Virus record (IMG/VR): IMGVR_UViG_3300028895_000122
Origin: a virus
Direction: 5' to 3' (one strand)
DNA: 64,000 nt
Numbering within the stretch: the first letter of the stretch is position 1; every line of letters begins with the position of its first letter. Shown in pieces: positions 4,096 through 59,333 of this stretch. The notes below the pieces were generated by a model. That model saw only the letters and a program-made list of their open reading frames with translations, had not been told where the DNA came from and made no database searches. A program made the position numbers and the translations under genes.

Positions 4096-4124
4096 ATTAT
4101 AGTGTCACGTAACATATATGTCAA
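4096..4124 (-). promoter_or_regulatory. sigma70-type early promoter P1 (TTGACA-N17-TATAAT)
   Basis: Minus strand reads TTGACA tatatgttacgtgacac TATAAT, followed by aaattattaaaTAGGAGaattttaaaATG at 4070. Confidence 0.6.
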
Positions 4125-4129
4125 CGTAT

Positions 4130-5101
4130 TTAGATTACTTTGGATGGATCCGTAATAACCTGTGCTAATTCTTGACCACCACGCACTGATGTTAATTCGC
4201 CTGGTACCTTAACTTCAAACCAAGCAACATTGTCGTCTGGATAATTAACTTGATTAAGTAATTCAAAATCAAGTTTTTCTAATAATACCTTTAATAATCT
4301 ACCAGGTGTATATGTGTTCATCATATTTTCTGCATTGCGTACACCAGCAGTATAATCGCAATCATTATATGTAAACACAATAATTCCACCAGGCTTTAGA
4401 TATCTTTTTAGTTCTATTAGATAATCTTCGATAGCTTCAAGTGGCATATAGTTGAAATAATCATAAAGAACAATTAGACCAAGTTGATTCTCTGGCACAT
4501 TATGTACCTTATGATCACGTGTTTCTTCTATATTAAGATATCTAATTCTTTTCTGAAACTCAGGAGTCCATAGTTGTTTAACTTCATCAAACAATGACAT
4601 ATGAGTATCACCAATATACAACGGAGTACATGTTATCAATGGATCAACAAATTCTCCAGATTCTGGTCTAATAAATAATGCTGATCGTTTCCAATCAGCA
4701 TGAGTCTCGAGCCGGCCTATAAAGTGTTCTTTAACCTTGTCTCGTTTAATACATGGAAAGTTTTGATATCGTTCTTTAACATACTCGTGAGTATCATGCT
4801 CTTTAGCAGTATCGTACCACTCGTAACTTTGTTGAATTAATGGTTTTTCGAGTTCGTAAATAATGTCAGACATATCACTTTTATATTGTTCTAACATTTT
4901 ATCAAACTCATTGAGGTGTTGAGTTATTTTGGCTCCCATACCAACCATATCTGTTTGGTCACAAGCTAACCCAATATCTTGTGCTGATACATCACCTAAA
5001 ATTTTAGATAATTCAGTATTAACATATTGTGTTAACTCATTGACGTGCCATTGCTCAACTGCTGTACGATAACTTACTAAATCACTTAATTTCATTTTCA
5101 A
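4130..5101 (-). CDS. hypothetical protein, possible degenerate class-I methyltransferase-like fold
   Basis: ATGA overlap with the polymerase C-fragment. A C-terminal LKPGGIIVFTYNDCD resembles a post-motif MTase segment. No GxGxG motif I was found. Confidence 0.35.
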   Translation of the reverse strand: MKMKLSDLVSYRTAVEQWHVNELTQYVNTELSKILGDVSAQDIGLACDQTDMVGMGAKITQHLNEFDKMLEQYKSDMSDIIYELEKPLIQQSYEWYDTAKEHDTHEYVKERYQNFPCIKRDKVKEHFIGRLETHADWKRSALFIRPESGEFVDPLITCTPLYIGDTHMSLFDEVKQLWTPEFQKRIRYLNIEETRDHKVHNVPENQLGLIVLYDYFNYMPLEAIEDYLIELKRYLKPGGIIVFTYNDCDYTAGVRNAENMMNTYTPGRLLKVLLEKLDFELLNQVNYPDDNVAWFEVKVPGELTSVRGGQELAQVITDPSKVI

Positions 5102-6084
5102 AACTCGAATAAACTTTCAAATGTATTGCTAGTATCAGTTGCTGCTGCCAAATCCCATTCTAGTACACCTAATAGATTGTCAACCTTCTGATCAATGATT
5201 GTACTTTCCATTAAGTTATCATCAAACGGCAACTCTTTATACCACTCGGGTAAGTGTGCTTCATCTGTTGGATAACCGATGCTAGTCCATCCTAACGGAT
5301 TTTGTTTTAATTTACATACAATGGTTTTCATACCATCTACAATTTGCATGGTATAATTATCATTATTCATTTTGCGTAAAGTATTCCAATTTAATGCTGC
5401 TCGTACATGCCCGGGCATGTTAGCTTTACCTTGCGCTTTCTCCATATTACCGTATTTGGTTAAGTTGTTAACACGTTTTGGTGTTCCTTTTTCCCAACTA
5501 GGCTTTTCGTGGAATTCATTCTTAAATTCTTTAATTTCTTCGATTAATTCTTCTCTAGTTGAACCTGTTAGTAGACTATTTAGAATATTGCTCAAAAAGT
5601 CTTGTACTACCTTTGGCGTGTCGGAGCGTTTAAGGTCTAAGCCCATTGCTTTTACTTTGCCTGGCTTACCATCTACATCTTTGCGTTCGCCTTCGTCATC
5701 AACCACCATAATAGCATATCGCTTTTTCGTAATAAAAAGTCCACTACTGCCAACCACTTCTCGTCCACACGCAATAATTTCACCGTACGATTGTGGACAA
5801 TGAAATGCCCTCTTAGCAAACGCAGGAAAGGAGTCATTGACTTGTTGCCCAAGCTCGTCGTATAACGCGATCGCAACATCAGTGTTCCATTCTTGATCTC
5901 CTCTCTCAACTGCCTCCTTGACAACCGGCCAAGCAGAGAAATAAGCCGAGTCAGTGTTATGTACAAGCGATCCGTTTGCAAAAAAGAACGGATCCTGGTC
6001 AGCCATTGACACATCATAAACATACTCCTCTGTTGTATCTAACTTTTCTACGGATTTAACTCGTTGTCTTTTTAATTCAATCAT
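5098..6084 (-). CDS. 43: DNA polymerase (family B, gp43) C-terminal fragment carrying a C-intein
   Basis: It begins MIELKRQRVKSVEKLDTTEEYVYDVSMADQDPFFFANGSLVHN (intein blocks F/G ending HN), then TDSAYF, which completes YGD|TDS motif C. A 285-aa C-extein follows. The protein ends NTFESLFEF, a clamp-binding-like tail. Confidence 0.85.
   Translation of the reverse strand: MIELKRQRVKSVEKLDTTEEYVYDVSMADQDPFFFANGSLVHNTDSAYFSAWPVVKEAVERGDQEWNTDVAIALYDELGQQVNDSFPAFAKRAFHCPQSYGEIIACGREVVGSSGLFITKKRYAIMVVDDEGERKDVDGKPGKVKAMGLDLKRSDTPKVVQDFLSNILNSLLTGSTREELIEEIKEFKNEFHEKPSWEKGTPKRVNNLTKYGNMEKAQGKANMPGHVRAALNWNTLRKMNNDNYTMQIVDGMKTIVCKLKQNPLGWTSIGYPTDEAHLPEWYKELPFDDNLMESTIIDQKVDNLLGVLEWDLAAATDTSNTFESLFEF
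5956..6084 (-). other. split-intein C-fragment (43 aa) at the N-terminus of the polymerase C-fragment
   Basis: VYDVSM...NGSLVHN immediately precedes the +1 Thr of TDS. Confidence 0.7.
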
Positions 6085-7986: not shown

Positions 7987-8135
7987 ATGCGAATTAAAGA
8001 AGTCACAAAAAAGGTTGTTAAAGATGACGCAGACTATAACAATGATGTTATGTCTGGCCATCAAAAGCCTATTCCCGAACTTACACCTGCTCAAGTCAAA
8101 AAAGCAAAAGCCCTCAAAAAGATTAAGAATCTATA
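7987..8135 (+). CDS. possible small Lys-rich ORF (49 aa), opposite strand
   Basis: ATG..TAG open frame MRIKEVTKKVVKDDADYNNDVMSGHQKPIPELTPAQVKKAKALKKIKNL in the gap between the HEG-like gene and the polymerase N-fragment. It overlaps the polymerase stop and has no clear SD. Confidence 0.15.
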
Positions 8136-10315
8136 GAGATAATTAAGTCATCATCCTGCAATTCTGTAGGTTTAACTTCTATTGTAAATCCGTCTCTATC
8201 AACTATTAAACTATGATCCTCTGTAACGGTTATAGAACTACCATCTTCCATTGTGACCTTGTATAGTTGTTTGGATGTTTTATGACGCATCACATAGTTG
8301 ATCGCTCCAAATACAGCCTCATCTTCATGAGCATTATAACCAAGCACCTTTAGATCATGTTGTGCTTCTGTGGGTATGGCATATTCTTTACCGCCATCTT
8401 GCTCTACCTTGTATTGAATCTGATTGTATAAATCTTCTATGGATATGTTGCCTTTGTTGGTGTTTAATGTAGTATCGCCTGTAACTGAGTCGCCGTATAT
8501 GATGCATTCACCAACATGATCATATTCTCCTGTTAAACATTGATTAACATAAGCGTCCATGTGTTTAGCAATTGCTCGCCCTGTTAACGTTGTGCTTTGT
8601 CCTATCCTAGGGTCAAAAAATCTACAATGTGGGTTTAGGATAGCACCATATAAAGAGTTAAGGTTAATCTTTTTAACGAGTTGTCGTTTATCCCAGAAAG
8701 CAATTTCTTCTTTATCGCTTGCTGTTTTTTTCTTTGCTTGTAATTCTTTACGTTCGGCATACCAACGTTCTAGTAACCCTGGAACAACACCTTTCTTTTC
8801 GTATGTAAAGATGGTACCATTTGCACTTATACACCAATTGGTATTCTCGTTAAATATATGGTCATGTAACTCTTTTGCAGTATGTACGCTTTCTTCGCCG
8901 TTAACCCAATCGACAGTAATTTCTGTATCTGTTCTGCGATCCATAACTGCTGTATATTCCAATGTACCAAACAATCCTTCCCAGGCTGCTGCAAACGAAG
9001 CACCTACATATTTCTTACCATTTCTAAACGTCGGCTCTTGTTTCTTTTTAATGTAGTTGTTGGTCATTATAGGACGTAGTTGTCCTACAATAGTTTCATT
9101 AGCCATGTTCAATGCACGAATAACAGATGGATACAGTGAGTTCAAGTCAACCGACCCAATCCATTTATGTACACCTTTTTTAGGGTATGCTACATAAGCA
9201 CCTGCTGCTTGTGTATCTTCTTTGTCGTGGCGTTTACGATCTGGTACTACCATTCCGCGTTCATGTGCTTCGTTGATGATGGCTTGCTCTGTTACCGCCA
9301 CCGCGCCCATTGTTGTAGGAAGCAATACAGTATTAGCATGAGCTAGTTCGTTTGCTAAATCAAGGAACTTGAGTTTCTCATCCAGTTTAGCAAGTAACGC
9401 AACGTCCTGCCTGTTATAGTCAATAAACGTGTAAAAGTCTTGGTTGTATAGTTGGTCAAGTGTGCCTTCATATTCTACCTTACGCTCGCCAAGTTCATAT
9501 TCACCAATTGCATCTAAGCTATAAGAATGCATTTCGTGATATGTATATTTTCTGTACAGTTGCATATAATCCATATGAACCCTACCAACTGTATCATATG
9601 TAATATGTTCTGCACCAAACCGTTCAAATGTACGTTTCTTAGGTAACATACCCCACAAACATAATCTACGAGTGTCGTCTTTACTTAATACTCGTGTAAT
9701 ACGATTTACTGTGTATGGTATATCAAAGCCTTCGCTGTTCCAGCCGCTATACACGTCGGCGTCTTCGATTATATCCAAAAAGGTTAATAACATATCACGT
9801 TCGTGTTCGAAGATAAATGTATTAGGAAACTCTTTACACATTTCTTGTGCTTCTTCGACTGATAATGTTTTTGGCGGCACCGCCAATGTAATAAGACTTT
9901 CCATCCAATCTAAATATACTGTGATAGCAGTAATCTTATTAAACGGATCGTCTGTTGGTGCAAAACCTTTTTCTTGGTGGAAGTCCACCTCGATATCAAA
10001 AAACGCTGTTTGTAGTTTGGGTGAGTCAACATCTTTATAGTTTGTTTCTATACACCTAAAGATAGGATTAATATCAGATTCAAACAATTGTTGACCTGAA
10101 TGCATTTTAATTTCTTTTTGGAACTCTTTGCCAGTTCTACATGAAAACTTCGATACTGGTGTTCCATAAAGACTTATGTATTTCCCTTTTGCTGATGGGT
10201 AATAAAATACATAGTCGGCAGGATATTCTTTGAATAATCTCTGCCCATCTTTTGATCTTTCTACAATTTTAATACGATCATGTTCACGATCGTGTATAGC
10301 GTCAACATAACTCAT
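8123..10315 (-). CDS. 43: DNA polymerase (family B, gp43) N-terminal fragment carrying an N-intein
   Basis: FFDIEV (Exo I), DLNSLYPS (motif A) and KINLNSLYG (motif B) are present. The extein ends ECIIYGD. A 121-aa SVTGDTTL...VTEDHSLIV... tail follows, then stop. Confidence 0.85.
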   Translation of the reverse strand: MSYVDAIHDREHDRIKIVERSKDGQRLFKEYPADYVFYYPSAKGKYISLYGTPVSKFSCRTGKEFQKEIKMHSGQQLFESDINPIFRCIETNYKDVDSPKLQTAFFDIEVDFHQEKGFAPTDDPFNKITAITVYLDWMESLITLAVPPKTLSVEEAQEMCKEFPNTFIFEHERDMLLTFLDIIEDADVYSGWNSEGFDIPYTVNRITRVLSKDDTRRLCLWGMLPKKRTFERFGAEHITYDTVGRVHMDYMQLYRKYTYHEMHSYSLDAIGEYELGERKVEYEGTLDQLYNQDFYTFIDYNRQDVALLAKLDEKLKFLDLANELAHANTVLLPTTMGAVAVTEQAIINEAHERGMVVPDRKRHDKEDTQAAGAYVAYPKKGVHKWIGSVDLNSLYPSVIRALNMANETIVGQLRPIMTNNYIKKKQEPTFRNGKKYVGASFAAAWEGLFGTLEYTAVMDRRTDTEITVDWVNGEESVHTAKELHDHIFNENTNWCISANGTIFTYEKKGVVPGLLERWYAERKELQAKKKTASDKEEIAFWDKRQLVKKINLNSLYGAILNPHCRFFDPRIGQSTTLTGRAIAKHMDAYVNQCLTGEYDHVGECIIYGDSVTGDTTLNTNKGNISIEDLYNQIQYKVEQDGGKEYAIPTEAQHDLKVLGYNAHEDEAVFGAINYVMRHKTSKQLYKVTMEDGSSITVTEDHSLIVDRDGFTIEVKPTELQDDDLIISIDS
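8126..8488 (-). other. split-intein N-fragment (121 aa) at the C-terminus of the polymerase N-fragment
   Basis: Block A SVTGDTTL follows YGD directly. Block B is TxxH (SSITVTEDHSLIV). Confidence 0.7.
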
Positions 10316-10598: not shown

Positions 10599-10627
10599 AT
10601 TATAGTTGAATAGCTTGGGTATGTCAA
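10599..10627 (-). promoter_or_regulatory. sigma70-type early promoter P2 (TTGACA-N17-TATAAT)
   Basis: Minus strand reads TTGACA tacccaagctattcaac TATAAT, then tatactttagattaTAGGAGAATagcATG. Confidence 0.6.
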
Positions 10628-13272: not shown

Positions 13273-13947
13273 ATGAAACATTATACTTATATGATTACAA
13301 ATACGTTAAATGATATGCAATATATTGGAGTAAGATCTTGTGACTGTGAGCCCAACGAAGATCAGTATTGGAGTTCAAGTAAATATTTAAAAGAGGATAT
13401 TACTAAATTTGGCATTGAAAATTTCACAAAACAAATTTTGAATATTTGGAATACCAGAGAAGATGCTCTCGAACACGAAATATCTTTACATGAGCAATAT
13501 AATGTATCTACAAATAAATTATTTTATAATAAATCAAAACAAACGTCTGTTGGGTTTGATACAACCGGTATGCCTGGTCCTTGTAATATGCTTGGCAAAA
13601 AGCATACAGAAGAATCGAAACAAAAAATGAGTAAGTCAAAAAAAGGTAAACCCAAAACAACGGAACATAACTTAAAAAACTCTTTATCGCATAGAGGAGA
13701 GAAAAATCCTTTTTATGGTAAGAAGCACACACAGGAATCCATTGAGAAAATTAGAAAAGCATCAACTGGCAAAAATAATCCGATGTATGGAAAACAACAT
13801 TCCGACGAAGTTAAACAAAAGATTTCTCAAATAAACAAAGGTAAGAAAAGAGTTAAAGTAACTTGCCCGCATTGCGGTAAAGTAGGTGGTGGACCTGGGA
13901 TGAAAATGTATCACTTTGATAACTGTAAGGTTAGTAAAAGTATTTAA
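13273..13947 (+). CDS. GIY-YIG homing endonuclease with NUMOD3 repeats (Seg/I-TevI-like)
   Basis: YTYMITNTLNDMQYIGV is a GIY-YIG motif. Repeated GKKHTEESKQKMS / GKKHTQESIEKIR / GKQHSDEVKQKIS are NUMOD3-like. It is a lone plus-strand gene in a minus-strand block. Confidence 0.8.
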   Translation: MKHYTYMITNTLNDMQYIGVRSCDCEPNEDQYWSSSKYLKEDITKFGIENFTKQILNIWNTREDALEHEISLHEQYNVSTNKLFYNKSKQTSVGFDTTGMPGPCNMLGKKHTEESKQKMSKSKKGKPKTTEHNLKNSLSHRGEKNPFYGKKHTQESIEKIRKASTGKNNPMYGKQHSDEVKQKISQINKGKKRVKVTCPHCGKVGGGPGMKMYHFDNCKVSKSI

Positions 13948-16717: not shown

Positions 16718-17431
16718 TTATATTTCCTCATTAATTATGTTGTATGTTTTCTTTAAAAGTCCGGGCGCACATATATTAAAAATAGTTTCTATGCCAGGAT
16801 CATTATAGTCAAAGAAAAAATGTTCTTGACAGTATTTACTTGGAAAATTTAACCAACGTTTAAAAGTTCGACATGGTACAACTGTATCGTGATAAATCTT
16901 TAAAAATTGTTTTAGTTTTTGTTTGTGATCGTTTGTTACAATACACGTTTTTAAATAAGTTCTATACTTGTAATCAGAATTTTTTCTAACCAATGAACCC
17001 GAATCGGAATTAATCTTTATTTCTGTTATGCCGGGATCTACTATACCAGGCAATGTTAATAATTCTTCTAAAAACGGTATATTATTCGAATAACAATAAA
17101 AACGGTGTGTTGTAAGAACCAACCGATATTTAAGATCCTGTTCATTGAAGAAGTTAATAAATGAATTTAAGTTTTCTTTTGTGATATCGGTAATCGGTTC
17201 TCTATGCATTGAGCCAACCATACCAAGTGAACGCGGTACATAAAACCCCGAACGTTTATATCTTTCTTTAATTCGTAAGCGTTCATCTAATCCGACACTG
17301 GTTAATCCTCGTACAGAATTAACTTCTTGAAGATACCCACATGCAGACCATTGATACTCATTAAAGAATAGTTTATTGCTTTTCTTTATACTATAATTTA
17401 GGTTTGAATTGGTCCAAGACAATGTATCCAT
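16718..17431 (-). CDS. hypothetical protein
   Basis: Packed ORF. No motif recognised. Confidence 0.4.
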   Translation of the reverse strand: MDTLSWTNSNLNYSIKKSNKLFFNEYQWSACGYLQEVNSVRGLTSVGLDERLRIKERYKRSGFYVPRSLGMVGSMHREPITDITKENLNSFINFFNEQDLKYRLVLTTHRFYCYSNNIPFLEELLTLPGIVDPGITEIKINSDSGSLVRKNSDYKYRTYLKTCIVTNDHKQKLKQFLKIYHDTVVPCRTFKRWLNFPSKYCQEHFFFDYNDPGIETIFNICAPGLLKKTYNIINEEI

Positions 17432-19688
17432 CGTCGCTTATTGTGCCCTCGGGCATTTTCTCCGTTGTTAATTTATTATTCTGTTCGAAGATTATTTCTT
17501 CACCATCTAAAAGAACTGTTAATGTTGTGTCTTTAAGATTTTCAAATAATATCTTTTTACTTAGCGGTACTTTAAGTAATTCATTGATTTTTCTTGATAT
17601 AGGTCTAGCACCCATTTTGCTATCATAACCAACATCTGCAAGAAAATCAATTACAGCTTCAGTAACATTAATTTTAATATTTTTATTTTTAAGTTGTTCT
17701 TTAAGATCTATAATAAACTTATTAACAACCTTCTTAATACTTAGCTCATCTAATTTGTTGAACTTAACAATCGCATCTAATCTATTACGCAATTCAGGTT
17801 TGAAGAACTCTTTAACAGCTTTATCTTCTTCTCCAGACTTTTCTAAGTCTTGCCCAAAGCCGATGTTAAAGTTTTCGTTATCTCTTGCACCTAAGTTACT
17901 TGTTAATAAAATAATGCAGTTCTTTATATTTACTGTTTTTCCTGAAGAACTTGTAATATGTCCTTCGTCGAGCATCTGTAACATAATGTTAGACACATCT
18001 GGATGAGCCTTTTCAATTTCATCAAACAATAAGATACTATATGGATCTTTAGTAATGTCTTGAATAAGTTTACCACCACCTAAATTACCATCTTCGTATC
18101 CTACATATCCAGGCGGTGCACCAATTAACTGTGACACACTATGTCGTTCTTGATATTCTGACATGTCATAACGTAACAGTTCCATGTCTAGGTTCTTGCT
18201 TAACAATTTAGCAAACTCAGTTTTACCGCAGCCTGTAGGTCCAAGTAATAAGAAGCTAGCAACTGGTTTATTTTCTGTAGTTAATCCACCGAAGCTAACA
18301 TAGATACGATCAAGCATTTCATCTACTGCGTCATCTTGACCGTAAAGTTTCTCTTTGATGTTGGCTCCTAAGTCGCGCACCTTATTACAATCTTCATTTT
18401 TAAGACGTTCAACAGGAACAGTAGTAATCTTCTCTGCTTCTCTGAAAATAAGGTCTGGTGTAATCTCAACATCCTTATTATCTTTAGCACGTTGTTTAGC
18501 ACATGCCGCATCTAATAGATCGATTGATTTATCTGGATTCTGTCTATCGTGGATATAACGTGTTGCTAAGTCCACCGCAGTAATACAGGCCTCTTTATCG
18601 ATTCGAACGCTGTGGAATTCTTCGAGTCGACTAGAAAGTCCGTTTAGGATTTTGATAGTTGTATCATGATCTGGCTCGTCGATATTGAGTTTATAGAATC
18701 GACGCATTAATGCACGATCCTGTTCAAATGTTTCGTAAAACTCTTCCCAGGTAGTTGAAGCAATTACTTTAAGTTTGCCGCGTGTAATAGCAGGCTTTAA
18801 CATGTTGGCCATATCTAAGTTGCCATTGCTACCAGCACCAGCACCTGACATAGTGTGTGCTTCGTCGATGAACAAGATACCGTTATTAAGTGTTTCCAAT
18901 GCTTTAATAACTTCTTGGAACTTTTCTTCAAACTCACCACGATACTTCGAACCAGCTAATAAAGATCCAACTTCCAATGACCATACTGTATGTCCTTTAA
19001 GAAACTCAGGAACATCACCTTCGGCTATTTCCTGTGCAAGGCCTTCTACGATTGCTGTTTTACCAACGCCAGGGTCACCTACCATTAGTACATTTGATTT
19101 AAACTTCTTAGCAAGAATTTCAACCGCGTCTTGAATTTCGTTTGCACGACCAATCAATGGTTCGAACTTACCTTCTTCTGCTAATTCGGTTAAGTTAGTA
19201 CAGTGCTCATACAGAATGTCTTCCGCTTGGTCGTTGTTTAATGTTACTTTAGCGCCTTCTTTGTAACTCTTGTTCCAGTGCTCAACAAATGAATCTTTAT
19301 CGACACCGTGTTTCAATAAGAAGTAAGATGCATGACTATTTGTTTCTGCAGAAATACTTAGGTAAAGATCAATGGTTGTAATTTGTTTACGTCCAGAGAA
19401 AAGAACTTGTGTTCCTGCTCTATTGAATATGCGTTCTAATGCATTTGTACGTTTTGGTGTGTCTTTGTATTGTGGGTTAACAATATTTTTAAGATTGACT
19501 AAATATCCTTCGAGTTCTGAATCAAATAAATCAGTATCAACTCCGTAGTTCTTTAATACTTCATCAAATGGTTCGAATCGAATAAGTGCTAACAGTAAAT
19601 GTTCTGTTAATACATATTCATGTTTCTTCTGTTTTGCAATGTGAATTGCATATTCTGTAATTTGTTCAATCTCTGGATTTACTTGCAT
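17391..19688 (-). CDS. ClpA/ClpC-like two-AAA+ domain unfoldase (765 aa)
   Basis: A Clp_N-like [10 protein letters not shown] segment. AAA1 Walker [23 protein letters not shown]2 [16 protein letters not shown]. The length matches ClpA (no ClpB middle domain). Confidence 0.8.
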
Positions 19689-32450: not shown

Positions 32451-32876
32451 TTAAAAAATAATTTCGTTTTGTGTACCGACATTGTGTAAAGAACCATCTA
32501 GAATCTTTTGTTTATGGTCGGCGTGTGTAGCTTCAGAGAATGTATCATCGCTTTGTGGTTCATCACTTATTAGTAGTATGTCGTTATTGTCGACTCTGCG
32601 TAGTACCATTTCTTCACCATTGATATCAACGGTAATACCACGTGTCCATCTACCATGTTTAACAAGAATATATTCACCAACCTGTACATCAGTTTGGTCA
32701 TCACCTACTGCATATACTTCTGCCCAACGTGGACGAATACCTTGTGTTTTGGCATCGTCTTTAGGAAGTAAAATCCCACCAGATGTTTTACGTTCACCAA
32801 ACTCCATATCCTTTACTAGAATATGATCATGTAATGGTTTAAGACCTTTGATATTGTATTTTGTGATGGTTGACAT
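32451..32876 (-). CDS. GroES-like co-chaperonin (gp31 analogue)
   Basis: LKPLHDHILVKDMEFGERKTSGGILLP...AEVYAVGDD follows the GroES pattern (RPLHDRVIVK...SAGGIVL...VLAVG). The mobile-loop region is extended. Confidence 0.6.
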   Translation of the reverse strand: MSTITKYNIKGLKPLHDHILVKDMEFGERKTSGGILLPKDDAKTQGIRPRWAEVYAVGDDQTDVQVGEYILVKHGRWTRGITVDINGEEMVLRRVDNNDILLISDEPQSDDTFSEATHADHKQKILDGSLHNVGTQNEIIF

Positions 32877-40502: not shown

Positions 40503-40510
40503 TATAATTA

Positions 40511-40897
40511 TTATACTGGATCAGTTTGGTTGTTGTCAACTGGTTGTTTAAGTTTCTTCATAATTATTTGTTCTTCGACATACTTCTTAAACGTAGCCCT
40601 GTGACCATCCGGATCTTCACACCAATATTCGATGTGTTCGTAACTACCCCATGCCTGTGGTGGCATAACATTCATCACCCAATCCATAATGCCCCACATT
40701 CTTTGAGCATTGGCTGTGTCTGCTGTTTTAACAGCCCGAAACATATCACCTGCTAGGCATGCTTCTAGGAAGCCACCAGGTTTAATACCATCAACAACAT
40801 AAAGCTCTAATGCCTTCTGTGAATGGTCAGGAATTGATTGACCAATTTGCATGGCCTTTTCGCCCATGTCAAAACAAATATATTTGTTAGCTGCCAT
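40511..40897 (-). CDS. hypothetical protein
   Basis: Trimmed to the ATG at 40897 (MAANKYICF...). The track start at 40924 is a TTG. Confidence 0.35.
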   Translation of the reverse strand: MAANKYICFDMGEKAMQIGQSIPDHSQKALELYVVDGIKPGGFLEACLAGDMFRAVKTADTANAQRMWGIMDWVMNVMPPQAWGSYEHIEYWCEDPDGHRATFKKYVEEQIIMKKLKQPVDNNQTDPV

Positions 40898-42132: not shown

Positions 42133-42969
42133 TCACCTTAGGTGTTGGGTTTCTTTAACTATAAAATTTTTGTCTTTATACATGCGCTGGTCAGCTAAGT
42201 GGATTATATCATCAATATCACTAGCTTCTAAACTTGTTGCATAGCCCATACTACAAGAAATTTGTTGCGGTCCTGCATCTGTAAAAATAGGTTTATTAAT
42301 TGCATCATAAATCTTATCCATGATCATGTTAATAACTTTGGTACTAATTGTTTTATTAATTAAAATAACAAATTCATCACCACCGTAACGACATACAATA
42401 TCGCTATCGCGAAGTAAGTGCTGCAATCGTTTTGCTACGACAGCCAGGACTTGATCACCTGCAGAATGACCACCAGGACCATCATTGACTGCTTTAAACT
42501 TGTTTAAGTCAATAAAGATTAATGAAAAATGATCAACTATAAACGATGCTTCGTTAAAAAATGCACGTCTAGTTAATGTGCCTGTTAGCGAATCAAAATT
42601 AATTTCATCATGGTAATCATCAAATCGAGCCACAGCATGTTCATCATCTAGTTTAAAAACATCAATGGCCAAACGAATCGTTTCCATGTTGCGATTTTTT
42701 GCTAGTATTACCCGTCTATCACTTAGCGTGTATCTATCCTCAGCTGTTGATCTGTCCATAAATTTATGCATCATATCAGCATGTTTTAATGCTGGGTTCT
42801 CGATTAAAATGTCTAAATCTTTGCCAATGAGCTCGTTTGGTTTATACCCAAATACATGAGCACCATACTCATTTATTGTAACAATTTTATGCTCTTTATT
42901 AAGCATAAGCATTCCAGAGCCGCACATATCAAGCATCTTTAAGAGAACTTCCGTTGTTGGTGTATTCAT
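42133..42969 (-). CDS. PAS-GGDEF diguanylate cyclase with intact A-site and RxxD I-site
   Basis: DSLTGTLTRRAF...FIDLNKFKAVNDGPGGHSAGDQVL...LRDSDIVCRYGGDEFVIL...LADQRMYKDK. RDSD lies five residues before GGDEF (the I-site). The N-terminal ~110 aa are PAS-like. Confidence 0.8.
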   Translation of the reverse strand: MNTPTTEVLLKMLDMCGSGMLMLNKEHKIVTINEYGAHVFGYKPNELIGKDLDILIENPALKHADMMHKFMDRSTAEDRYTLSDRRVILAKNRNMETIRLAIDVFKLDDEHAVARFDDYHDEINFDSLTGTLTRRAFFNEASFIVDHFSLIFIDLNKFKAVNDGPGGHSAGDQVLAVVAKRLQHLLRDSDIVCRYGGDEFVILINKTISTKVINMIMDKIYDAINKPIFTDAGPQQISCSMGYATSLEASDIDDIIHLADQRMYKDKNFIVKETQHLR

Positions 42970-48978: not shown

Positions 48979-49163
48979 ACTGGTTTTAACTCCCCCATTG
49001 CATTTTCTTCAAAACGTGCTACAGCAAAGCCGCCATCAACTTGAGTTGCTGATTGTGGTGGCATGTAACCTATTTGAACATGATATCCCATACGTCCTTC
49101 TTCGTTGGCTATCTCTATAGCACGTTGAAAATCTCGTTGCGATATGGTAAAGTATTCATTCAT
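48975..49163 (-). CDS. hypothetical small protein
   Basis: Packed ORF. Confidence 0.3.
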   Translation of the reverse strand: MNEYFTISQRDFQRAIEIANEEGRMGYHVQIGYMPPQSATQVDGGFAVARFEENAMGELKPV

Positions 49164-49354
49164 TTTTTTATTTCCTTACAGTAAATTTCTTTGGCTGCAT
49201 GTTGACAATGCATCATGTTACTTTCTTCATTGCATTTTAAAACAAACTCAGCACGGTCGGCTTGTGTGCTTTCGGAACATCTATATTCAGGTCCGCAATC
49301 ACACCCTACCAGAAATATAGGAATTAATAATACTAAGTATTTCATTGATCCCAC
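49160..49354 (-). CDS. small Cys-rich lipoprotein candidate
   Basis: [15 protein letters not shown] is a lipobox-like signal. Six further Cys residues. Confidence 0.4.
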
Positions 49355-49701
49355 CTTTTATGTTTGCGAAAAACGAAGTTGTCTGGATCGGTTCCTTCTG
49401 GTTCTGGCTGTCCAGTAAATCCTTCTGCTTTTTGCTGCTTAATTAATTCTTTCAACTCGGCAATTTCATTGCGTAGTTCTTGAATTTCGTTGTTGTTATC
49501 AACCTCGTTGCGTAGTTCTTGAACAACACTCTTTGTTTCTTTTTTTGTAACTCGTTTATATGCTTCAGGGGACTTTTGCTTACATACAAGGAGATCTTGC
49601 TTACAAGTATAATCTTGATATGCCGGAATAGCGATTGCTGCTAGGATTGCGACTATTGCTACAACAATCATCATTTCAATTAACGTAAAACCTTTATTCA
49701 C
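49342..49701 (-). CDS. type IV pilin / pseudopilin-like protein
   Basis: MNKG|[27 protein letters not shown] is a canonical short-leader class III signal with the GFTLIE N-methylation box and a hydrophobic alpha-1 helix. The short body has a Cys pair and two QELRNE repeats. Confidence 0.7.
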
Positions 49702-49775
49702 TGTTATCTCCTAACCTAATTGTTTTCACCCGAAAGCCCCCAATTAAGGAGGCTACGGTTACTTCTTAGTTAAGG

Positions 49776-51410
49776 TTACTTGGTAGTGCTACGATCGTAT
49801 GTTAGCTGTTTTGCAGCCTGCATAGTCATCATGTTCATGAAGTTTGCTACTTCACTATCACCACCTACTACAGGTCCTGTGCCATCACCACTACCACCAA
49901 AGCTAGTAACGTTCTGTGGTACTGCACGATTAGCATAAGCCTGTGCCCATACGTTGTGGATCTTAACCTCTGCATCAAGTTTCTGCTGCAAGGCACCATC
50001 CGCTTCAAGTACCAAACGTTTGTACTCAGAGTCACCACGACCTTCTGCTTTCTTCATTTCCTCGTACTCAAGAGCCGCAAGTTTCAACTGTTCTTTTTCA
50101 AGCTTCTGTTGTGCTGCAACCTCTACAAGTTTTTCCGCACCAAGGATTGCCACTGCTTTTGCTTTTTCGGCATCTACAACAGCTCGGATCTTTTCCTGCT
50201 CTTTCTCATACTTTGCAATGGTTACGTCACGTTTACCATTTTCTTCCGCAGTAATCGCTTCCTGCTTAGCCTGTTCAGCTTTTGCTTTTGCAGTAATAAT
50301 CGCCATTGTTGCTTTACGTTTCTCAGCAATCTGATCCAACGTTTTCTGTTCAAAGCCCCAGTCAGTAATCTGATATCCAGATACAGTAATACCGTACGCT
50401 TTCAAGTCAGTTTCGAAACGTTTAGCAAGACCATCTTCACCATATGCAATAACTGGAATGTTCTTAACAACTGATTTGCCAGTTACTTCATCCTTAACAA
50501 CATCCTGTTTCAACTCAGTGCGATACTTACCGTTAGTAACCTGATCACGTGACCACTCAATATAAGTACCACGCTGTTCTGCGTATGCACCCTCAGAAGT
50601 CATAAGACCAGCAGTCAAGTTCTGTGCTTCGTCTGTTACTGTTTTAATAAGTTTATATGCCACACCACCGTTTGAACGAAATGCTTTATGTAGTTTAAGC
50701 ATATTTGCATCATCTTTTGGCAAGTCAAAACGTGCTTTACCGAAAATAGTACCCGTACCACCATCTTGGTAACGAACCGGGATACCATCTACATCAATTG
50801 ACGTTTCACCATCTGCTGCGGTACGATCAAAGTCGTAAGTTACAACGTCACGATAAACTGTGACATTACCAAACCATTGTGTATAAAATCCTGGTTCAAA
50901 CTTAACAAAAAGTTTACCGTTTGGATACTGTACAACCGTTCGGTTACCAGCATCGTTAATACCAAATAGCAATGGGCTCACTGCCACAGTAAGGATCAAA
51001 ACCACAATCCCCAAAATCGCCTTCCAATTAATTACCATGTTAAAATTTCCTCTAAAGTTAGTATTTGGTGGCTCATCATTACCCTCATCTCCGCCGCCAC
51101 CGTTAGCAGAGTTGCCTACAAAAGTTTCCTTTAGTTTGGGTTTAATATTACGTTCCCAAGCCTTTCGCAAGAAACCTTTAGAATTTTCGATTTTTTCTCT
51201 ATGTTCGGTTATAGTTCTATCTTTATAACGCTCAATGATTTCAACTGTTTCGTCAAACGTTAAATTGTCACGTTCATTGATATGATCAATTAATGCTTTA
51301 ACTCTGCCCGGAACATGTCTAAGGTTTTCATTTTCGAATGCCGTTGCAAGACTATCAACATACATCTTGAGTTTTTCTAACTCGGCATCAGTATATTTTT
51401 CTTTACTCAT
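49776..51410 (-). CDS. SPFH/band-7 (HflK/C-, flotillin-like) membrane protein
   Basis: One TM helix (ILGIVVLILTVAVSPLLFGI). SPFH core ...GITVSGYQITDWGFEQKTLDQIAEKRKATMAIITAKAKAEQAKQEAITAEENGKR... followed by a long Ala/Glu/Lys coiled coil. Confidence 0.6.
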   Translation of the reverse strand: MSKEKYTDAELEKLKMYVDSLATAFENENLRHVPGRVKALIDHINERDNLTFDETVEIIERYKDRTITEHREKIENSKGFLRKAWERNIKPKLKETFVGNSANGGGGDEGNDEPPNTNFRGNFNMVINWKAILGIVVLILTVAVSPLLFGINDAGNRTVVQYPNGKLFVKFEPGFYTQWFGNVTVYRDVVTYDFDRTAADGETSIDVDGIPVRYQDGGTGTIFGKARFDLPKDDANMLKLHKAFRSNGGVAYKLIKTVTDEAQNLTAGLMTSEGAYAEQRGTYIEWSRDQVTNGKYRTELKQDVVKDEVTGKSVVKNIPVIAYGEDGLAKRFETDLKAYGITVSGYQITDWGFEQKTLDQIAEKRKATMAIITAKAKAEQAKQEAITAEENGKRDVTIAKYEKEQEKIRAVVDAEKAKAVAILGAEKLVEVAAQQKLEKEQLKLAALEYEEMKKAEGRGDSEYKRLVLEADGALQQKLDAEVKIHNVWAQAYANRAVPQNVTSFGGSGDGTGPVVGGDSEVANFMNMMTMQAAKQLTYDRSTTK

Positions 51411-51583
51411 TTTATTGATATCTCTTCGGTTGGTTCTTCTTGTTTTACATCAACGTTAACATTAACGTCTGGTGCAAGCCATATTAATGCTGCGGTTATT
51501 AAAAATGCAGCAATCCCATCTTCGGTCATGGCTAATGCTGTAAAAAATATCACAGCAACAACAAGTAAATAAAAAACTTCCAT
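51407..51583 (-). CDS. small two-helix membrane protein (58 aa), missed by cutoff
   Basis: MEVFYLLVVAVIFFTALAMTEDGIAAFLITAALIWLAPDVNVNVDVKQEEPTEEISIK. ATGA overlap with the SPFH start. Confidence 0.35.
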   Translation of the reverse strand: MEVFYLLVVAVIFFTALAMTEDGIAAFLITAALIWLAPDVNVNVDVKQEEPTEEISIK

Positions 51584-51837
51584 TACTGGTCCAGTTTGGA
51601 TTCTTTTTCTGAGATTGCCTTTTCGCGTGTTTGAACTTTCTTTTTCTGCTTAACAACCTTTTCTTTAATGTTAAGTACATCTTCACGCATTGCAAGATCT
51701 TGAAGTTCTTCTTTTGCGGCTGTTAGGTTGGCGCGATCAGTTTCCTGACGCTTTTCGATTTTTGTTTGTTTCCAAATCTGTCGGCTAATAAAAACAATTA
51801 AGCCAACAATAATCATACCAATGATAAATTTAAGCAT
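51583..51837 (-). CDS. small membrane-anchored coiled-coil protein
   Basis: N-terminal TM helix, then a charged helix. Confidence 0.4.
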   Translation of the reverse strand: MLKFIIGMIIVGLIVFISRQIWKQTKIEKRQETDRANLTAAKEELQDLAMREDVLNIKEKVVKQKKKVQTREKAISEKESKLDQ

Positions 51838-51872
51838 CTCTAATCCTCTATTTTCTTAGTTTCTAAATTATA

Positions 51873-52100
51873 TTAAAAATCGGGCTGTTTGTCAAGTTCT
51901 TCAAAGTAAATGTCTAAGAGGTACATCATGTGTTCGCCATTATCACCATCGCCGCCCATTTTAATATCTAAATAATCATTACCAAAATGAAAGTCCATGT
52001 CAGCCAGTGCGCGAACAAGCTCTACGCTTTTAGGATGATGTGGCGTACCTTCTTCCCACCGTTTATTAATATCCGTTTCGACCATGTTATACCTCTTCAA
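51873..52100 (-). CDS. hypothetical small protein
   Basis: Packed ORF. Confidence 0.35.
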   Translation of the reverse strand: MKRYNMVETDINKRWEEGTPHHPKSVELVRALADMDFHFGNDYLDIKMGGDGDNGEHMMYLLDIYFEELDKQPDF

Positions 52101-52988: not shown

Positions 52989-53253
52989 ATTCCCATAATA
53001 CTGCATTGCAATGATTATGAACTGCACCTATTGTCATGCCTGTAACATGATCGTGGTGTAAGTGTACTGGCCATTTGAAAAACCCATCTGGATAATATTC
53101 AGGGTGAACTTTCTTTTTTGCTATCTTTAAAGCAGGCATTCCATCTAGAGGTGCGCCACAATAATAGCAAAGACCTTTTTGGTGACGTACATACTCTTCC
53201 CTGAGTGTACGTCTCTCCTTTGGTTTAAGTTTATCATAGTTTTGTGGTTCCAT
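52975..53253 (-). CDS. Endonuclease VII-family (His-Me finger/HNH) protein
   Basis: CYYCGAPL...VHLHHDHVTGMTIGAVHNHCNAV parallels T4 endo VII CLICQREL...NHLDHDHELNG...RGLLCNLCNAAEG. Start taken at the ATG overlapping the PseT stop. Confidence 0.55.
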   Translation of the reverse strand: MEPQNYDKLKPKERRTLREEYVRHQKGLCYYCGAPLDGMPALKIAKKKVHPEYYPDGFFKWPVHLHHDHVTGMTIGAVHNHCNAVLWEYEGE

Positions 53254-54119
53254 TAGAACGCTCCGTAATTTACCTGGAACACCGTAAATCCCAAATGTCG
53301 CCACATATGAACCACTTGGTCACGATCGTCAAATACTCCAATCACATTATAACGACCTTTGATGTGATTGTTATAAATTTCTTCTTTAATAAGAGTATCT
53401 TTACGATTGTCACCTGCAGGACGAATATAAAACTCATCAAACGGAACACCATGCTTTGTTAGCCAATCTGCAGTCTCATCTTTACATGATCCATCACGTC
53501 CTGACACTACAACCAATTTGGTTGATGGTCCTGCTACTTTTGATACCGCGTAGATAACATCTGGGTTAGGAAGATCTGTTCCGACTTTGTCCCATTCGAA
53601 TGGTCCACGTCCGTTCATTTGTGCAACAGTACCATCAACATCAACAATAATACAATCTTCCAAATTGCTATCATACTCTGGTGTTGGCCACCAATGTTCA
53701 CGATGACGATCAAACATACCCATAATAACTTTAGCACCTACAGGATGTTCGCGTTTAGCATCGCGGTCCAGACATACACCAAGATGTACATCAGTAAACA
53801 GTTCTTCACGATAACCAATACCACGATCGTCAGCAATGCCTTTCCAGTTTTTGTTGCGATCTGGATTCAGGTTAGTGTCAGATACGATAACAGATTTACC
53901 GTGCGACAGAGCTTCTTGAGCCATAGCCATTGCTGTAACAGTTACAGTAGACTCGCGCCATTTGCTGAACTTGTTATAACGATCACGGCCCTGCATTGCT
54001 AGACGAATGTCATCACGATTTACATTAATATAATCTGGGTTTTGTTTAATGAACTCGTTAGTCCAAGTAGTTTTACCTGAAGCTGGCAGTCCAACTGTTA
54101 GTACGATTTCTTGTGTCAT
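53253..54119 (-). CDS. pseT: polynucleotide 5'-kinase/3'-phosphatase (T4 PseT orthologue)
   Basis: Collinear with T4 Pnk: VLTVGLPASGKTTWTNEFIKQNPDYINVNRDD, VIVSDTNLNPDRN, IIVDVDGTVAQMNGRGPF (HAD DxDGT), RKDTLIKEEIY, DDRDQVVHMWRHLGF. Confidence 0.85.
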   Translation of the reverse strand: MTQEIVLTVGLPASGKTTWTNEFIKQNPDYINVNRDDIRLAMQGRDRYNKFSKWRESTVTVTAMAMAQEALSHGKSVIVSDTNLNPDRNKNWKGIADDRGIGYREELFTDVHLGVCLDRDAKREHPVGAKVIMGMFDRHREHWWPTPEYDSNLEDCIIVDVDGTVAQMNGRGPFEWDKVGTDLPNPDVIYAVSKVAGPSTKLVVVSGRDGSCKDETADWLTKHGVPFDEFYIRPAGDNRKDTLIKEEIYNNHIKGRYNVIGVFDDRDQVVHMWRHLGFTVFQVNYGAF

Positions 54120-55041: not shown

Positions 55042-55243
55042 CTACCCACCTTAAGGGTTTCCAATAATACGGAAACCCCTCGTGAAGTTCCACAACGGCA
55101 TCAACTTCGGTATATTCTTCCTCCCATGATGCACGTTGTAACCATTTACGTTTGCCGTCGAGGGTCATTGGCAGAAATAGAAACTTATTACGTTGTATCC
55201 GCTTATCCCCGATCATTGGTTTTCTAAAAATAATCATACCCAT
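55034..55243 (-). CDS. hypothetical small protein
   Basis: Packed ORF. Confidence 0.35.
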   Translation of the reverse strand: MGMIIFRKPMIGDKRIQRNKFLFLPMTLDGKRKWLQRASWEEEYTEVDAVVELHEGFPYYWKPLRWVDD

Positions 55244-56295
55244 TCCAAACGTTTGATCTGTTTCAACAAAAATGCTTTCCAGTCTGGTTCTTCATTCTTG
55301 CTGTAATACATCATAGCAAGTGAGAACTCATAACCTTCTAATTCATTCTGACCTTTAATAGCAAACTCTTTACGGTCTAAATGCTTGTTAGCATTATAAT
55401 ACTCTGTAACAGAATTTACAATTAAGTTGGCTTTATGAATTACCTTATGCTGTAACTCTTGCATTTCTTTCAACACTTCAGGCTGATCAGCAATTAACGC
55501 AAAAACATCATCAGCTTCATCTTTCAACACTAATTCAATAAATGCATTAGGCTGGTTAACAAAGTCTTTAGCACGGTGACGTTCCAAATACCATGCACAC
55601 TTTTCTTTCCACCAGTTACCTTGACGATCAATTACAACATAACCTTCGACGTTAGTTAAAGTATCAAGTTCATCCAATTTTATAAGGCTTTCAAAACCAG
55701 TAAAGTATTCTTTTGGAATTGAACCTGGGTACATATACATACCAGTATCACGCTGACGAGCATTTAGCACAATCAAACGTGGTTCTGGATAGTGAAGCAC
55801 AATACGGAACTTTGGATCTGGATGAACCAATTCCATGTTTACAGTATAACCATCACGTTCGCACCACTTAACAAAATCAAACAAATCGTTGTCATTGTAC
55901 AAGATATCCATTGCCATGTTTGCATAATCAGAATGAATAGAAGTTTTAGACTTTAAACGCAAATCACCTTCGGAATCAACATAAGAGCTGATTAAAGAAC
56001 CATCTGCTTTGTTCATTACATACTGTGGATCTTCATATTCGATAAAGTCTACTTCACCTTTGTTAAAAAACTTATGCATCGGACGAGAAGCAATACGCAA
56101 TGGATTACCTTCGCAGTCAATCTGAAACATGATACCACGTGACTCTAATGCATCTGGCAGTAACCATGAGTCTTTATCAGTGAAGTGATAAGAGAATATG
56201 CGATAGCAGTCCTTACCAATTTCCTGATCAGAGTGGTAAAATGGAGTGTCGTCGTTTAACGACAAGTTCATTAAGTTGTTATATAATTCTTTCAT
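55234..56295 (-). CDS. rnlA: RNA ligase 1 (T4 RnlA orthologue)
   Basis: N-terminus MKELYNNLMNLS...YRIFSYHF...SWLLPDALESRGIMF...LRIASRPMHKFFN is near-collinear with T4 Rnl1 MQELFNNLMEL...YRIFSYNY...DWLLPDALECRGIMF...VRIASRPMEKFFN. VMNKADGSL is the KxDG nucleotidyl-lysine motif. Confidence 0.85.
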   Translation of the reverse strand: MKELYNNLMNLSLNDDTPFYHSDQEIGKDCYRIFSYHFTDKDSWLLPDALESRGIMFQIDCEGNPLRIASRPMHKFFNKGEVDFIEYEDPQYVMNKADGSLISSYVDSEGDLRLKSKTSIHSDYANMAMDILYNDNDLFDFVKWCERDGYTVNMELVHPDPKFRIVLHYPEPRLIVLNARQRDTGMYMYPGSIPKEYFTGFESLIKLDELDTLTNVEGYVVIDRQGNWWKEKCAWYLERHRAKDFVNQPNAFIELVLKDEADDVFALIADQPEVLKEMQELQHKVIHKANLIVNSVTEYYNANKHLDRKEFAIKGQNELEGYEFSLAMMYYSKNEEPDWKAFLLKQIKRLEWV

Positions 56296-58597: not shown

Positions 58598-58807
58598 TCA
58601 ATAACTTACGTCGAGTATTTTCACGTCACTGTCGTCGGAATCTGGGTACCATGCACAAACTACTTCTGCCCCGGACGTCCAGGTATTATCGTAGACTGAA
58701 ACAACAATTTCGTCGCTAGTTTCGCATAATGTTGAAAAATCCTTCATTTCATCAGAAATGTCTGTACAGCCAATTAGTAATAAAGGCAGGAATAATAGTT
58801 TCTTCAT
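58598..58807 (-). CDS. small lipoprotein candidate
   Basis: MKKLLFLPLLLIGC is a lipobox. Confidence 0.4.
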   Translation of the reverse strand: MKKLLFLPLLLIGCTDISDEMKDFSTLCETSDEIVVSVYDNTWTSGAEVVCAWYPDSDDSDVKILDVSY

Positions 58808-59091
58808 CTTCTTTTCCTTGGGTTACGTTTATTACTCATTATACTAGGATCTATATAATTTGCGGGTTTTTTAGCCACCCATTTTGCGAATTTGCTTATT
58901 TCTTCATGTTCTAATAGTTTCTCAATTGTGTTGTACTGCTTAGCCAATTCCTTTTCAGTGAACGTTGCATGGATTTTATCGTGACATACACGATGTAGAG
59001 TCACAGTTTCTTTACCCTTTTTAGATTTAGGGATTAAGTGATGTTCGTCCATTGTATCATCATAAGGTCTTTTGCAAATTGGGCAATTCAT
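58804..59091 (-). CDS. HNH endonuclease
   Basis: MNCPICKRPY...EHHLIPKSKKGKETVTLHRVCHDKIH follows CxxC...HH...N...CxxCH. Start trimmed to the internal ATG at 59091. Confidence 0.55.
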   Translation of the reverse strand: MNCPICKRPYDDTMDEHHLIPKSKKGKETVTLHRVCHDKIHATFTEKELAKQYNTIEKLLEHEEISKFAKWVAKKPANYIDPSIMSNKRNPRKRR

Positions 59092-59126
59092 AAGTATAAG
59101 TATTACATAACTAGAATAAAAAGTCA

Positions 59127-59333
59127 ATGTCGAAATACGAATATATTTGTAAAGATTGTGAGGTAGTATATATTATCGAAAAAACTGCCGACAGGAAAAG
59201 TGATAGTTCAGTTTGTCCACATTGTCATGGAGTTTTAGAATACACCGGCGCCATTATTTCTGAAGATAAAAAAGAAAAACCTAAAAACGTTGTTTCATTG
59301 GCTGAAATGAGATTGCGTAAGAAAGGAATCTAA
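59127..59333 (+). CDS. FmdB-type zinc-ribbon protein
   Basis: MSKYEYICKDCEVVY...SVCPHCHG. First plus-strand gene at the strand switch. Confidence 0.45.
   Translation: MSKYEYICKDCEVVYIIEKTADRKSDSSVCPHCHGVLEYTGAIISEDKKEKPKNVVSLAEMRLRKKGI

Follow-up and report, generated by a model that had tools for sequence, protein, structure and literature searches.

A PilA-type pilin helix on an orphan stalk in a large phage: a possible early decoy of the host pilin-handling machinery

Introduction

Many phages use type IV pili as their receptors, and the same filaments power motility, the uptake of DNA and colonization. Virulent phages carry superinfection-exclusion proteins such as T4 Imm and Sp, and lipoproteins such as T5 Llp, which acts at the outer membrane. 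Prophages encode mimics of the minor pilin FimU (P-FimU) that block the adsorption of phages binding the pilus tip and so prevent superinfection (Sztanko et al., Cell Rep 2026, PMC12952977). PilA-like genes and genes for a 60-residue truncated PilA occur in virulent phages, where incorporation into the pilus or its poisoning was proposed, though not tested (PMC12952977). Here we describe a gene of this kind, gene A, in the IMG/VR virus record IMGVR_UViG_3300028895_000122, of which the whole 64,000-nucleotide stretch (hereafter the window) was analysed. Gene A lies at 49342..49701 on the minus strand, stop codon included, and is predicted to encode a 119-residue prepilin-like chimera, protein A. 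It is followed by gene B, which encodes a Cys-rich lipoprotein. We propose, with a probability of about 0.4, that A is an early inner-membrane-anchored pilin decoy whose target would be the type IV pilus or the type II secretion platform of the host.

On its predicted features, A belongs with the PilA-like genes of virulent phages; what is new is the capture of the helix only, on an orphan stalk, with a lipoprotein probably of the inner membrane after it and a set of genes that includes an SPFH gene ahead of it. Compared by published description, A resembles the PilA-like and truncated PilA proteins in being phage-borne, in its prepilin N-terminus, in the apparently non-temperate nature of its phage and in the role proposed for it; with the truncated PilA family it also shares a similarity confined to the N-terminal helix. 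Unlike A, P-FimU and the Xylella P-PilA adopt complete pilin folds, which superpose on their host counterpart, and the ~60-residue truncated PilA lacks the 87-residue coiled-coil stalk and tail to which the helix of A is fused. Gene A is also set apart by its context, with a lipoprotein gene behind it and an SPFH set in front. A and B would share with T4 Imm, Sp and T5 Llp the character of small, early, envelope-targeted proteins, B being likewise a small lipoprotein, but neither has any sequence or fold similarity to these proteins (a Pfam T4_Spackle match with an E value of 0.97 is noise).

Results

A sequence-only reading of this DNA had assigned a class III prepilin signal to the product of 49342..49701, and profile searches bore this out. 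Protein A matched Pfam PF07963 (N_methyl) with an E value of 7.7e-9 and 35.2 bits, against a cut-off of 21.2, and TIGR02532 with 38.8 bits, against a cut-off of 16.3. The predicted signal is far beyond chance, and A displays the hallmarks of the prepilin class: a short basic leader up to Gly-1, Phe+1, Glu+5 and ~20 hydrophobic residues. Codons 1–32 (49606..49701, minus strand) specify the leader MNKG, the G/F cleavage site, Glu+5 and a PilA-type alpha1-N helix that runs to ...AIPAYQDYT. The leader, the cleavage site, Glu+5, Pro22 and the AIPAYQDYT ending are shared with type IVa major pilins (PilA; PF07963 plus PF00114). Unlike PilA, A has no alpha-beta head, no D-region and no pil operon context, and its leader is only four residues long.

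In a search of 5.8 billion proteins, 7,731 matched A with an E value of 1e-3 or lower; among the matches listed, all carry the prepilin N_methyl domain and align just to the N-terminal ~30–40% of A. Residues 1–32 share 80–88% identity with PilA, and identity to the closest PilA proteins over the first ~30 residues reached 88–90%. When the model of A was compared with the PDB by Foldseek, only the N-terminal helix of PAK pilin was recovered (31 columns, 71% identity, root-mean-square deviation 0.6 A). The pilin-like portion, as predicted, is limited to residues 1–32, which correspond to alpha1-N, the membrane-seated segment of the pilus core. This segment is under strong purifying selection. 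The ratio of non-synonymous to synonymous substitution (dN/dS) was calculated codon by codon between two alleles, gene A and the longer allele P0002 described below, and was 0.11 for codons 2–32, with eight synonymous and four non-synonymous differences.

No pilin head was detected in A by Pfam or NCBIfam, and PF00114 gave no match. The NCBIfam equivalog models all scored far under their cut-offs: PpdD 48.9 against 138, PilA 39.9 against 400, GspG 25.2 against 88.85 and ComGC 30.6 against 75. With every named pilin family test failing, A is, as judged from these profiles, a member of the prepilin-signal superfamily only. The suggestion in the sequence-only reading that A is a pilin or minor-pilin mimic therefore stands for the signal and the PilA alpha1-N helix, but not for a pilin fold. 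The window open reading frames (ORFs) that were scanned included no peptidase A24 gene.

Residues 33–92 (49426..49605, minus strand) are predicted to form a helical coiled-coil stalk of about five heptads. It contains Cys33 and Cys40, spaced i,i+7, and two copies of QELRNE at residues 61–66 and 74–79 (49504..49521 and 49465..49482, minus strand), so that the Cys pair and the repeats named in the sequence-only reading are indeed present. The 'minimal globular part' also named there was contradicted by the AlphaFold2 model, which is of moderate confidence (pLDDT 66.8, from an alignment of two sequences) and places helices at residues 7–35, 37–43, 45–69 and 71–92, followed by disorder over residues 93–119. 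Cys33 and Cys40 share a heptad position and, we infer, would suit inter-chain disulfides in a parallel dimer. Residues 93–119 (49345..49425, minus strand) form a conserved acidic, Pro-rich tail that ends in RKHKRWDQ and is predicted to be disordered; its last eight codons hold the ribosome-binding site and start of gene B.

The stalk is the most variable part of A, and its length depends on the allele. Its codons 33–86, compared over the aligned parts only, have a dN/dS of 0.22 with a dN of 0.50 and saturated synonymous sites; tail codons 87–119 have a dN/dS of 0.10. P0002 carries a 25-residue insertion with a second C-x6-C-K-x3-P-x2-Y-x-R module. A is a variable stalk that links a conserved membrane helix to a conserved tip. 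Among 1.84 billion representative proteins, residues 33–119 (87 amino acids) matched nothing beyond A's own 50%-identity cluster (that of P0001, into which P0002 also falls). Neither an NfeD nor an OB-fold match was found in A by Pfam or NCBIfam; A adjoins an SPFH gene and its model is helical, and it does not qualify as an SPFH partner of the NfeD type, a membrane protein whose C-terminal domain has an OB-fold. PADLOC returned only noise.

Gene A opens with GTG in the ORF list, 6 nt behind the Shine-Dalgarno sequence AGGAG (49708..49712, minus strand). A longer in-frame start is impossible, because each entry of the ORF list begins with the earliest start codon that follows a stop. The 5.8-billion-protein search gave only two full-length relatives: P0001, the identical protein A in another assembly, and P0002, a 144-residue allele with 58% identity. 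Some gene callers pick the internal Met10 as the start of gene A. P0002 has ATG at the codon homologous to the GTG of gene A and retains MNKGFTLIE through synonymous changes, which argues that the upstream GTG is the real start.

Comparison with a sister phage (L003/L004, L007) revealed strong local divergence around gene A. Gene B and its downstream neighbours show 99% identity between the two phages, and the 3' end of the SPFH gene shows 95%, whereas gene A is alignable only at its two ends, with 81–84% DNA identity. The sister phage has ~830 bp with three small ORFs inserted ahead of A and, in L003/L007, a gene for a 103-residue secreted protein between A and B. A hairpin at 49735..49754 is conserved in L003, and the insertion begins just past it. 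A 109-kb assembly of the phage breaks exactly at this A junction. The insertions and divergence in the sister phage, together with the assembly break, mark the position of A as a hypervariable accessory slot.

A 25-nt direct repeat, CGCAAACATAAAAGGTGGGATCAAT, flanks the inserted 103-residue gene at L003 1430..1459 and 1756..1785 (equivalent to ~49342..49370 of the window). Because they share this repeat, gene A and the inserted gene both end in RKHKRWDQ. The common ending was considered as a protein motif and rejected in favour of a DNA repeat that includes the gene B ribosome-binding site. The repeat looks like a cassette junction that doubles as that site.

Gene B (49160..49345, minus strand) encodes a 61-residue Cys-rich lipoprotein, and its ATG overlaps the stop codon of gene A by 4 nt (ATGA). 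The sequence-only reading had placed the lipoprotein gene upstream of A; the lipoprotein ORF is there, but it is transcriptionally downstream, since both genes are on the minus strand. Its lipobox, LVGC (49301..49312, minus strand), ends in Cys15, the residue predicted to be lipidated. The predicted mature protein begins CDCGPEYRC..., with Asp at position +2 and five cysteines besides the lipidated one. In E. coli, Asp at +2 of a lipoprotein is a Lol-avoidance signal that causes retention in the inner membrane, the residue at +3 modulating its strength. By this rule, which may not be that of the host, B is probably retained in the inner membrane. An inner-membrane-retained allele of Rz1, imRz1, was reportedly made by placing Asp at +2/+3. 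PMC6139136 describes imRz1 as altered in its outer-membrane localization signal, with inner-membrane retention as the outcome.

The B sequence is 100% identical on six contigs, and the search for relatives returned only B itself. Its model (single sequence, pLDDT 70) is a compact helical hairpin with two short strands that starts ~5 residues past the lipid anchor. The 64-kb window holds two lipobox ORFs, gene B and 58598..58807. The latter, on the minus strand, encodes 69 residues with the lipobox LIGC and Thr at +2, and overlaps the end of an HNH-like zinc-ribbon gene (58804..59127).

Gene A lies in a unit on the minus strand headed by a sigma-70 promoter with the perfect sequence TTGACA-17-TATAAT, 12/12 (51867..51895). 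In order, the unit comprises a gene for an 84-residue protein with an N-terminal transmembrane helix and a charged coiled coil (51583..51837), a gene for a 58-residue protein with two transmembrane helices (51407..51583), the SPFH gene, a weak hairpin, gene A, gene B and the genes onward. The SPFH gene (49776..51410), whose start overlaps the 58-residue gene by 4 nt, encodes a 544-residue SPFH/Band-7 membrane protein (Pfam Band_7, E value 2.3e-6; phrog_11908, E value 1.1e-92) that is 42% identical to proteins of T5-like vibriophages (Vibrio phage pVp-1, Thalassa). The GC-rich 7-bp hairpin between it and gene A (49735..49754, minus strand; z = -2.2) is followed by three U only and is at best a weak terminator.

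Near-consensus sigma-70 sites (at least 11/12) number 14 in the window against 3.8 expected, about fourfold; the coding strand carries 12 of the 14, most of them between genes. Perfect sites, all on the minus strand, lie at 51895..51867, 40539..40510, 10627..10599 and 4124..4096, and ten more score 11/12. Across the region, transcription of this large phage seems to depend largely on promoters of host type, and we infer from the promoter sequence and from the enrichment that the A unit is transcribed early by the host polymerase. The sequence-only reading had also placed A in the same island as a cyclic di-GMP cyclase. This amounts to loose co-location: the GGDEF gene is 6.2 kb further along the array, with two near-consensus promoters in between. 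It encodes a PAS-GGDEF diguanylate cyclase (42133..42969, minus strand; Pfam GGDEF, E value 1.8e-32).

Small prepilin-like genes were found in other phages. Six PHROG families match the N-terminus of A at E values of 2e-6 or lower, and one of them is named pilin and filed under morons and host takeover. A pattern scan of IMG/VR gave 14 loci with small prepilin-like genes of 67–117 residues, unrelated to A outside the signal. In three of them (L013, L021, L022) the prepilin-like gene comes directly after genes for a small protein with two transmembrane helices and an SPFH lipoprotein. Further distinct prepilin-like genes, with Pro/Ala-rich or charged C-terminal parts and not beside SPFH genes, occur on IMG/VR contigs of 135–292 kb (L011/L012, L014), so that phage proteins with prepilin signals seem to be both common and varied. 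A tblastn search of gene A against 50,697 phage records gave no match, a result that is uninformative on cultured phages as the low-complexity filter probably masks the hydrophobic helix.

The periplasmic SPFH-lipoprotein family occurs on 442 IMG/VR contigs; in the loci inspected a protein of ~58–67 residues with two transmembrane helices precedes it and a variable slot follows. Among the best 80 SPFH-lipoprotein loci (L030–L109), 11 have a mini-prepilin gene, on the same strand 0–800 bp downstream and nowhere else in the locus, and the remainder have other small secreted (Cys-pair) proteins in the slot. Window-type SPFH genes in other phages had no prepilin gene at any of 11 loci, and are flanked by genes for small proteins with a transmembrane helix and a coiled coil (pVp-1, L025, L026, L028, L029, CHOED). 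The association of SPFH and prepilin genes is real but facultative, and shared ancestry accounts for part of it. It could reflect a functional module or a mere insertion hot spot for envelope proteins.

Several genes of the window bear on the identity of the phage. On the minus strand at 17391..19688 is a gene for a 765-residue ClpA-like AAA+ ATPase, ~40% identical to proteins of the jumbo phages Atu_ph07, PA5oct and SCTP-2, which argues for a large phage that is not T5-like. The family-B DNA polymerase is encoded in two pieces by separate genes, the larger with an intein-splicing domain, and a homing endonuclease gene lies nearby on the opposite strand (8123..10315, 5098..6084 and 13273..13947). 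A tRNA-repair pair of PNKP and T4-type RNA ligase 1 (Rnl1) genes lies at 53253..54119 and 55234..56295 (minus strand) and a GroES-like gene at 32451..32876; the order Rnl1, PNKP, ..., GroES-like recalls the rnlA-pseT-31 region of T4, the site of the T4 spanin genes. PhoH is also encoded. A T5-like phage, considered on account of the SPFH matches, was rejected in view of the ClpA-like ATPase, the split polymerase B, the GroES-like gene and other features. The gene content points to a large jumbo-type phage that has no close cultured relative; a megablast of 48–52 kb of the window against the phage collection gave no match.

The host is not revealed by these genes. Relatives of the GGDEF protein have at most 48% identity over short segments, mostly 25–42%, and are spread over many taxa, chiefly marine gammaproteobacteria, so that the gene gives no clue to the host. 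A Vibrio host with MSHA pili, as the sequence-only reading had supposed, is unsupported, since the relatives of the SPFH, GGDEF and ClpA-like proteins do not identify one. Beyond the left end of the window, L111 11520..21518 carries genes for an epimerase, a DegT aminotransferase, a UDP-glucose dehydrogenase and a glycosyltransferase, and for GTP cyclohydrolase I and PTPS (7-deazaguanine). These sugar-nucleotide and 7-deazaguanine genes hint at DNA or surface modification. Scans of 66 ORFs of the window with Pfam or PHROG, both libraries being used for six of them, turned up no endolysin or holin.

Discussion

The best argument that A deals with the host pilin-handling machinery is the strong constraint on its PilA helix, which covers residues for peptidase recognition and assembly that are needless for anchoring. 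The part predicted to derive from a pilin stops exactly at the end of alpha1-N. Under the decoy reading, residues 1–32 would be a captured type IVa major-pilin N-terminus and residues 33–119 an orphan periplasmic stalk and tail. The host prepilin peptidase would cleave and methylate A, and the mature protein would stay anchored in the inner membrane, its stalk projecting into the periplasm. There the PilA helix would let A join the pilin pool, or the platform that assembles the type IV pilus or the type II secretion pseudopilus. Having no pilin head and a stalk that probably dimerizes, A would be a decoy or poison subunit and not a component from which pili are built; these two features favour poisoning over incorporation. 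Pili would be lost or altered soon after infection, leading to superinfection exclusion and keeping progeny from adsorbing to infected cells. B may be a compact, disulfide-rich lipoprotein at the same membrane face, acting as a partner of A or as an independent exclusion factor. The hypervariability seen in the sister phage fits an arms-race accessory gene, the early-type promoter and the recurrence of prepilin-like genes in phages also favour this reading, and pilus interference is a plausible idea with precedent among phage-encoded pilin mimics.

Several points weigh against this proposal. The processing, localization, target and phenotype of A are all deduced from its predicted features. 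The genes analysed do not point to a host, and both its possession of type IVa pili and their use by the phage are assumptions of the proposal. The C-terminal 87 residues are orphan and permit no transfer of function by homology, the two-sequence alignment limits confidence in the AlphaFold2 model, and a four-residue leader is short. Translational coupling of A and B was rejected as evidence of partnership, for 4-nt overlaps are the norm in this gene array. Finally, a transmembrane helix and coiled coil followed by an overlapping lipoprotein gene fits a spanin equally well.

That last possibility, like the SPFH context, had been overlooked in the sequence-only reading. A and B would then be a two-component spanin, A an i-spanin anchored by a prepilin helix and B an o-spanin, which would together span the periplasm and bring about fusion of the inner membrane with the outer one in the last step of lysis. 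An N-terminal transmembrane helix (N-in, C-out) with a helical periplasmic coiled coil is the architecture of an i-spanin, and a cleaved pilin helix would give the same topology; a lipobox gene directly after A with a 4-nt overlap is the layout of an o-spanin gene. In these traits, and in their periplasmic cysteines, A and B resemble T4 PseT.3/PseT.2 and lambda Rz/Rz1 (a type II transmembrane protein with a coiled coil, ~118 residues, and an overlapping lipoprotein gene); the sizes match PseT.3/PseT.2, 117 and 99 residues in FL33, whose genes also overlap by 4 nt. The PseT.3/PseT.2 genes sit between rnlA and pseT, and PMC6139136 places them in the rnlA-pseT-31 region, away from the lysis cassette; A/B likewise are near PNKP and RNA ligase genes, in the similar order Rnl1, PNKP, A/B, GroES-like. 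The i,i+7 cysteines suit covalent parallel dimers as in Rz, the conserved tail of A could contact B, and there is a weak Rz-like match (phrog_89, E value 0.013). No other pair resembling an i- and o-spanin was found in the window, the lipobox ORF at 58598..58807 following a non-membrane HNH-like gene. We nevertheless consider a spanin unlikely. An o-spanin must reach the outer membrane, and B has Asp at +2 (with the E. coli rule applied to a host not identified). The five periplasmic cysteines of B exceed the highest count, four, given for 526 o-spanins in PMC6139136, and the total of seven in A and B is found there in 0 of 526 spanin systems. That paper also gives the transmembrane domain as the part of spanin families that does not align, the reverse of A, in which the N-terminal helix is the most conserved part. 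B is modelled as a compact helical hairpin and not as an extended Pro-rich linker. The 103-residue gene separates A and B in the sister phage (L003/L007); A is hypervariable and B invariant; the promoter is of the early sigma-70 type; no holin or endolysin was seen among the scanned ORFs; and other phage prepilin-like genes have no lipoprotein partner. Neither protein aligns with T4-type PseT.3/PseT.2 and B has no relatives, which is weak evidence since spanin families are very diverse.

Nor need A act on pili if it works with the phage SPFH membrane module, as an accessory subunit or a client, its class III signal being just a cleavable inner-membrane anchor and its role lying in the membrane patch that SPFH organizes (envelope stabilization, a block to DNA entry or lysis timing). 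This account is possible, though we hold it doubtful. A comes immediately after the SPFH set, in a unit headed by a single promoter, and proteins with a transmembrane helix and coiled coil occupy the same position by window-type SPFH genes in L025, L028, L029 and CHOED. Mini-prepilins follow SPFH lipoproteins in the 11 loci described above, and L013 and L022 have the same layout with a different mini-prepilin type. These mini-prepilins retain GFTLIE without the remainder of a PilA-type helix, which suggests that for them a generic anchor suffices. Yet A keeps the full PilA alpha1-N under strong constraint, beyond the needs of an anchor. The slot behind SPFH genes is variable and often filled by unrelated small secreted proteins, so a gene next to SPFH could simply have landed in an insertion hot spot; mini-prepilins of the same family turn up at loci away from SPFH as well (L015, L017, L023, L024), and the absence of a prepilin gene from the 11 window-type SPFH loci elsewhere counts the same way. 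A literature search gave nothing usable on phage SPFH proteins and no known function for them. That A is instead a true structural subunit, built into host pili so as to alter their surface or tip against competing phages while pilus function is kept, appears very improbable. It has precedent in the P-FimU and P-PilA proposals (PMC12952977); all-helical pilins exist, and ComGC gave the longest family match of A (residues 3–79, at the sub-threshold score reported above). But A has no pilin head domain, no equivalog model passed, and a charged 60-residue stalk with a 27-residue disordered tail is unlike assembled pilins. The phage also appears virulent, and lasting pilus remodelling would therefore be of less value to it.

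If the decoy reading is true, an early pilin-helix decoy would give a virulent phage a small and simple means of blocking the pilus or the type II secretion machinery from within, and would be a natural design for dominant-negative pilins. The exact retention of alpha1-N marks the pilin part that a phage needs and makes the mechanism directly testable with point mutants. Should A and B prove to be a spanin, it would be the first to be anchored by a prepilin helix. The recurrent SPFH-prepilin neighbourhood offers a first handle on the role of phage SPFH proteins. An SPFH assembly made early and facing the periplasm might recruit pilin-helix-anchored proteins, together here with an inner-membrane lipoprotein, and capture or disable the pilin-handling machinery or seal the inner membrane against phage DNA; we think this broader scheme quite unlikely. 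If true, the SPFH-prepilin module would be an undescribed superinfection-exclusion or host-takeover system common to unrelated large phages.

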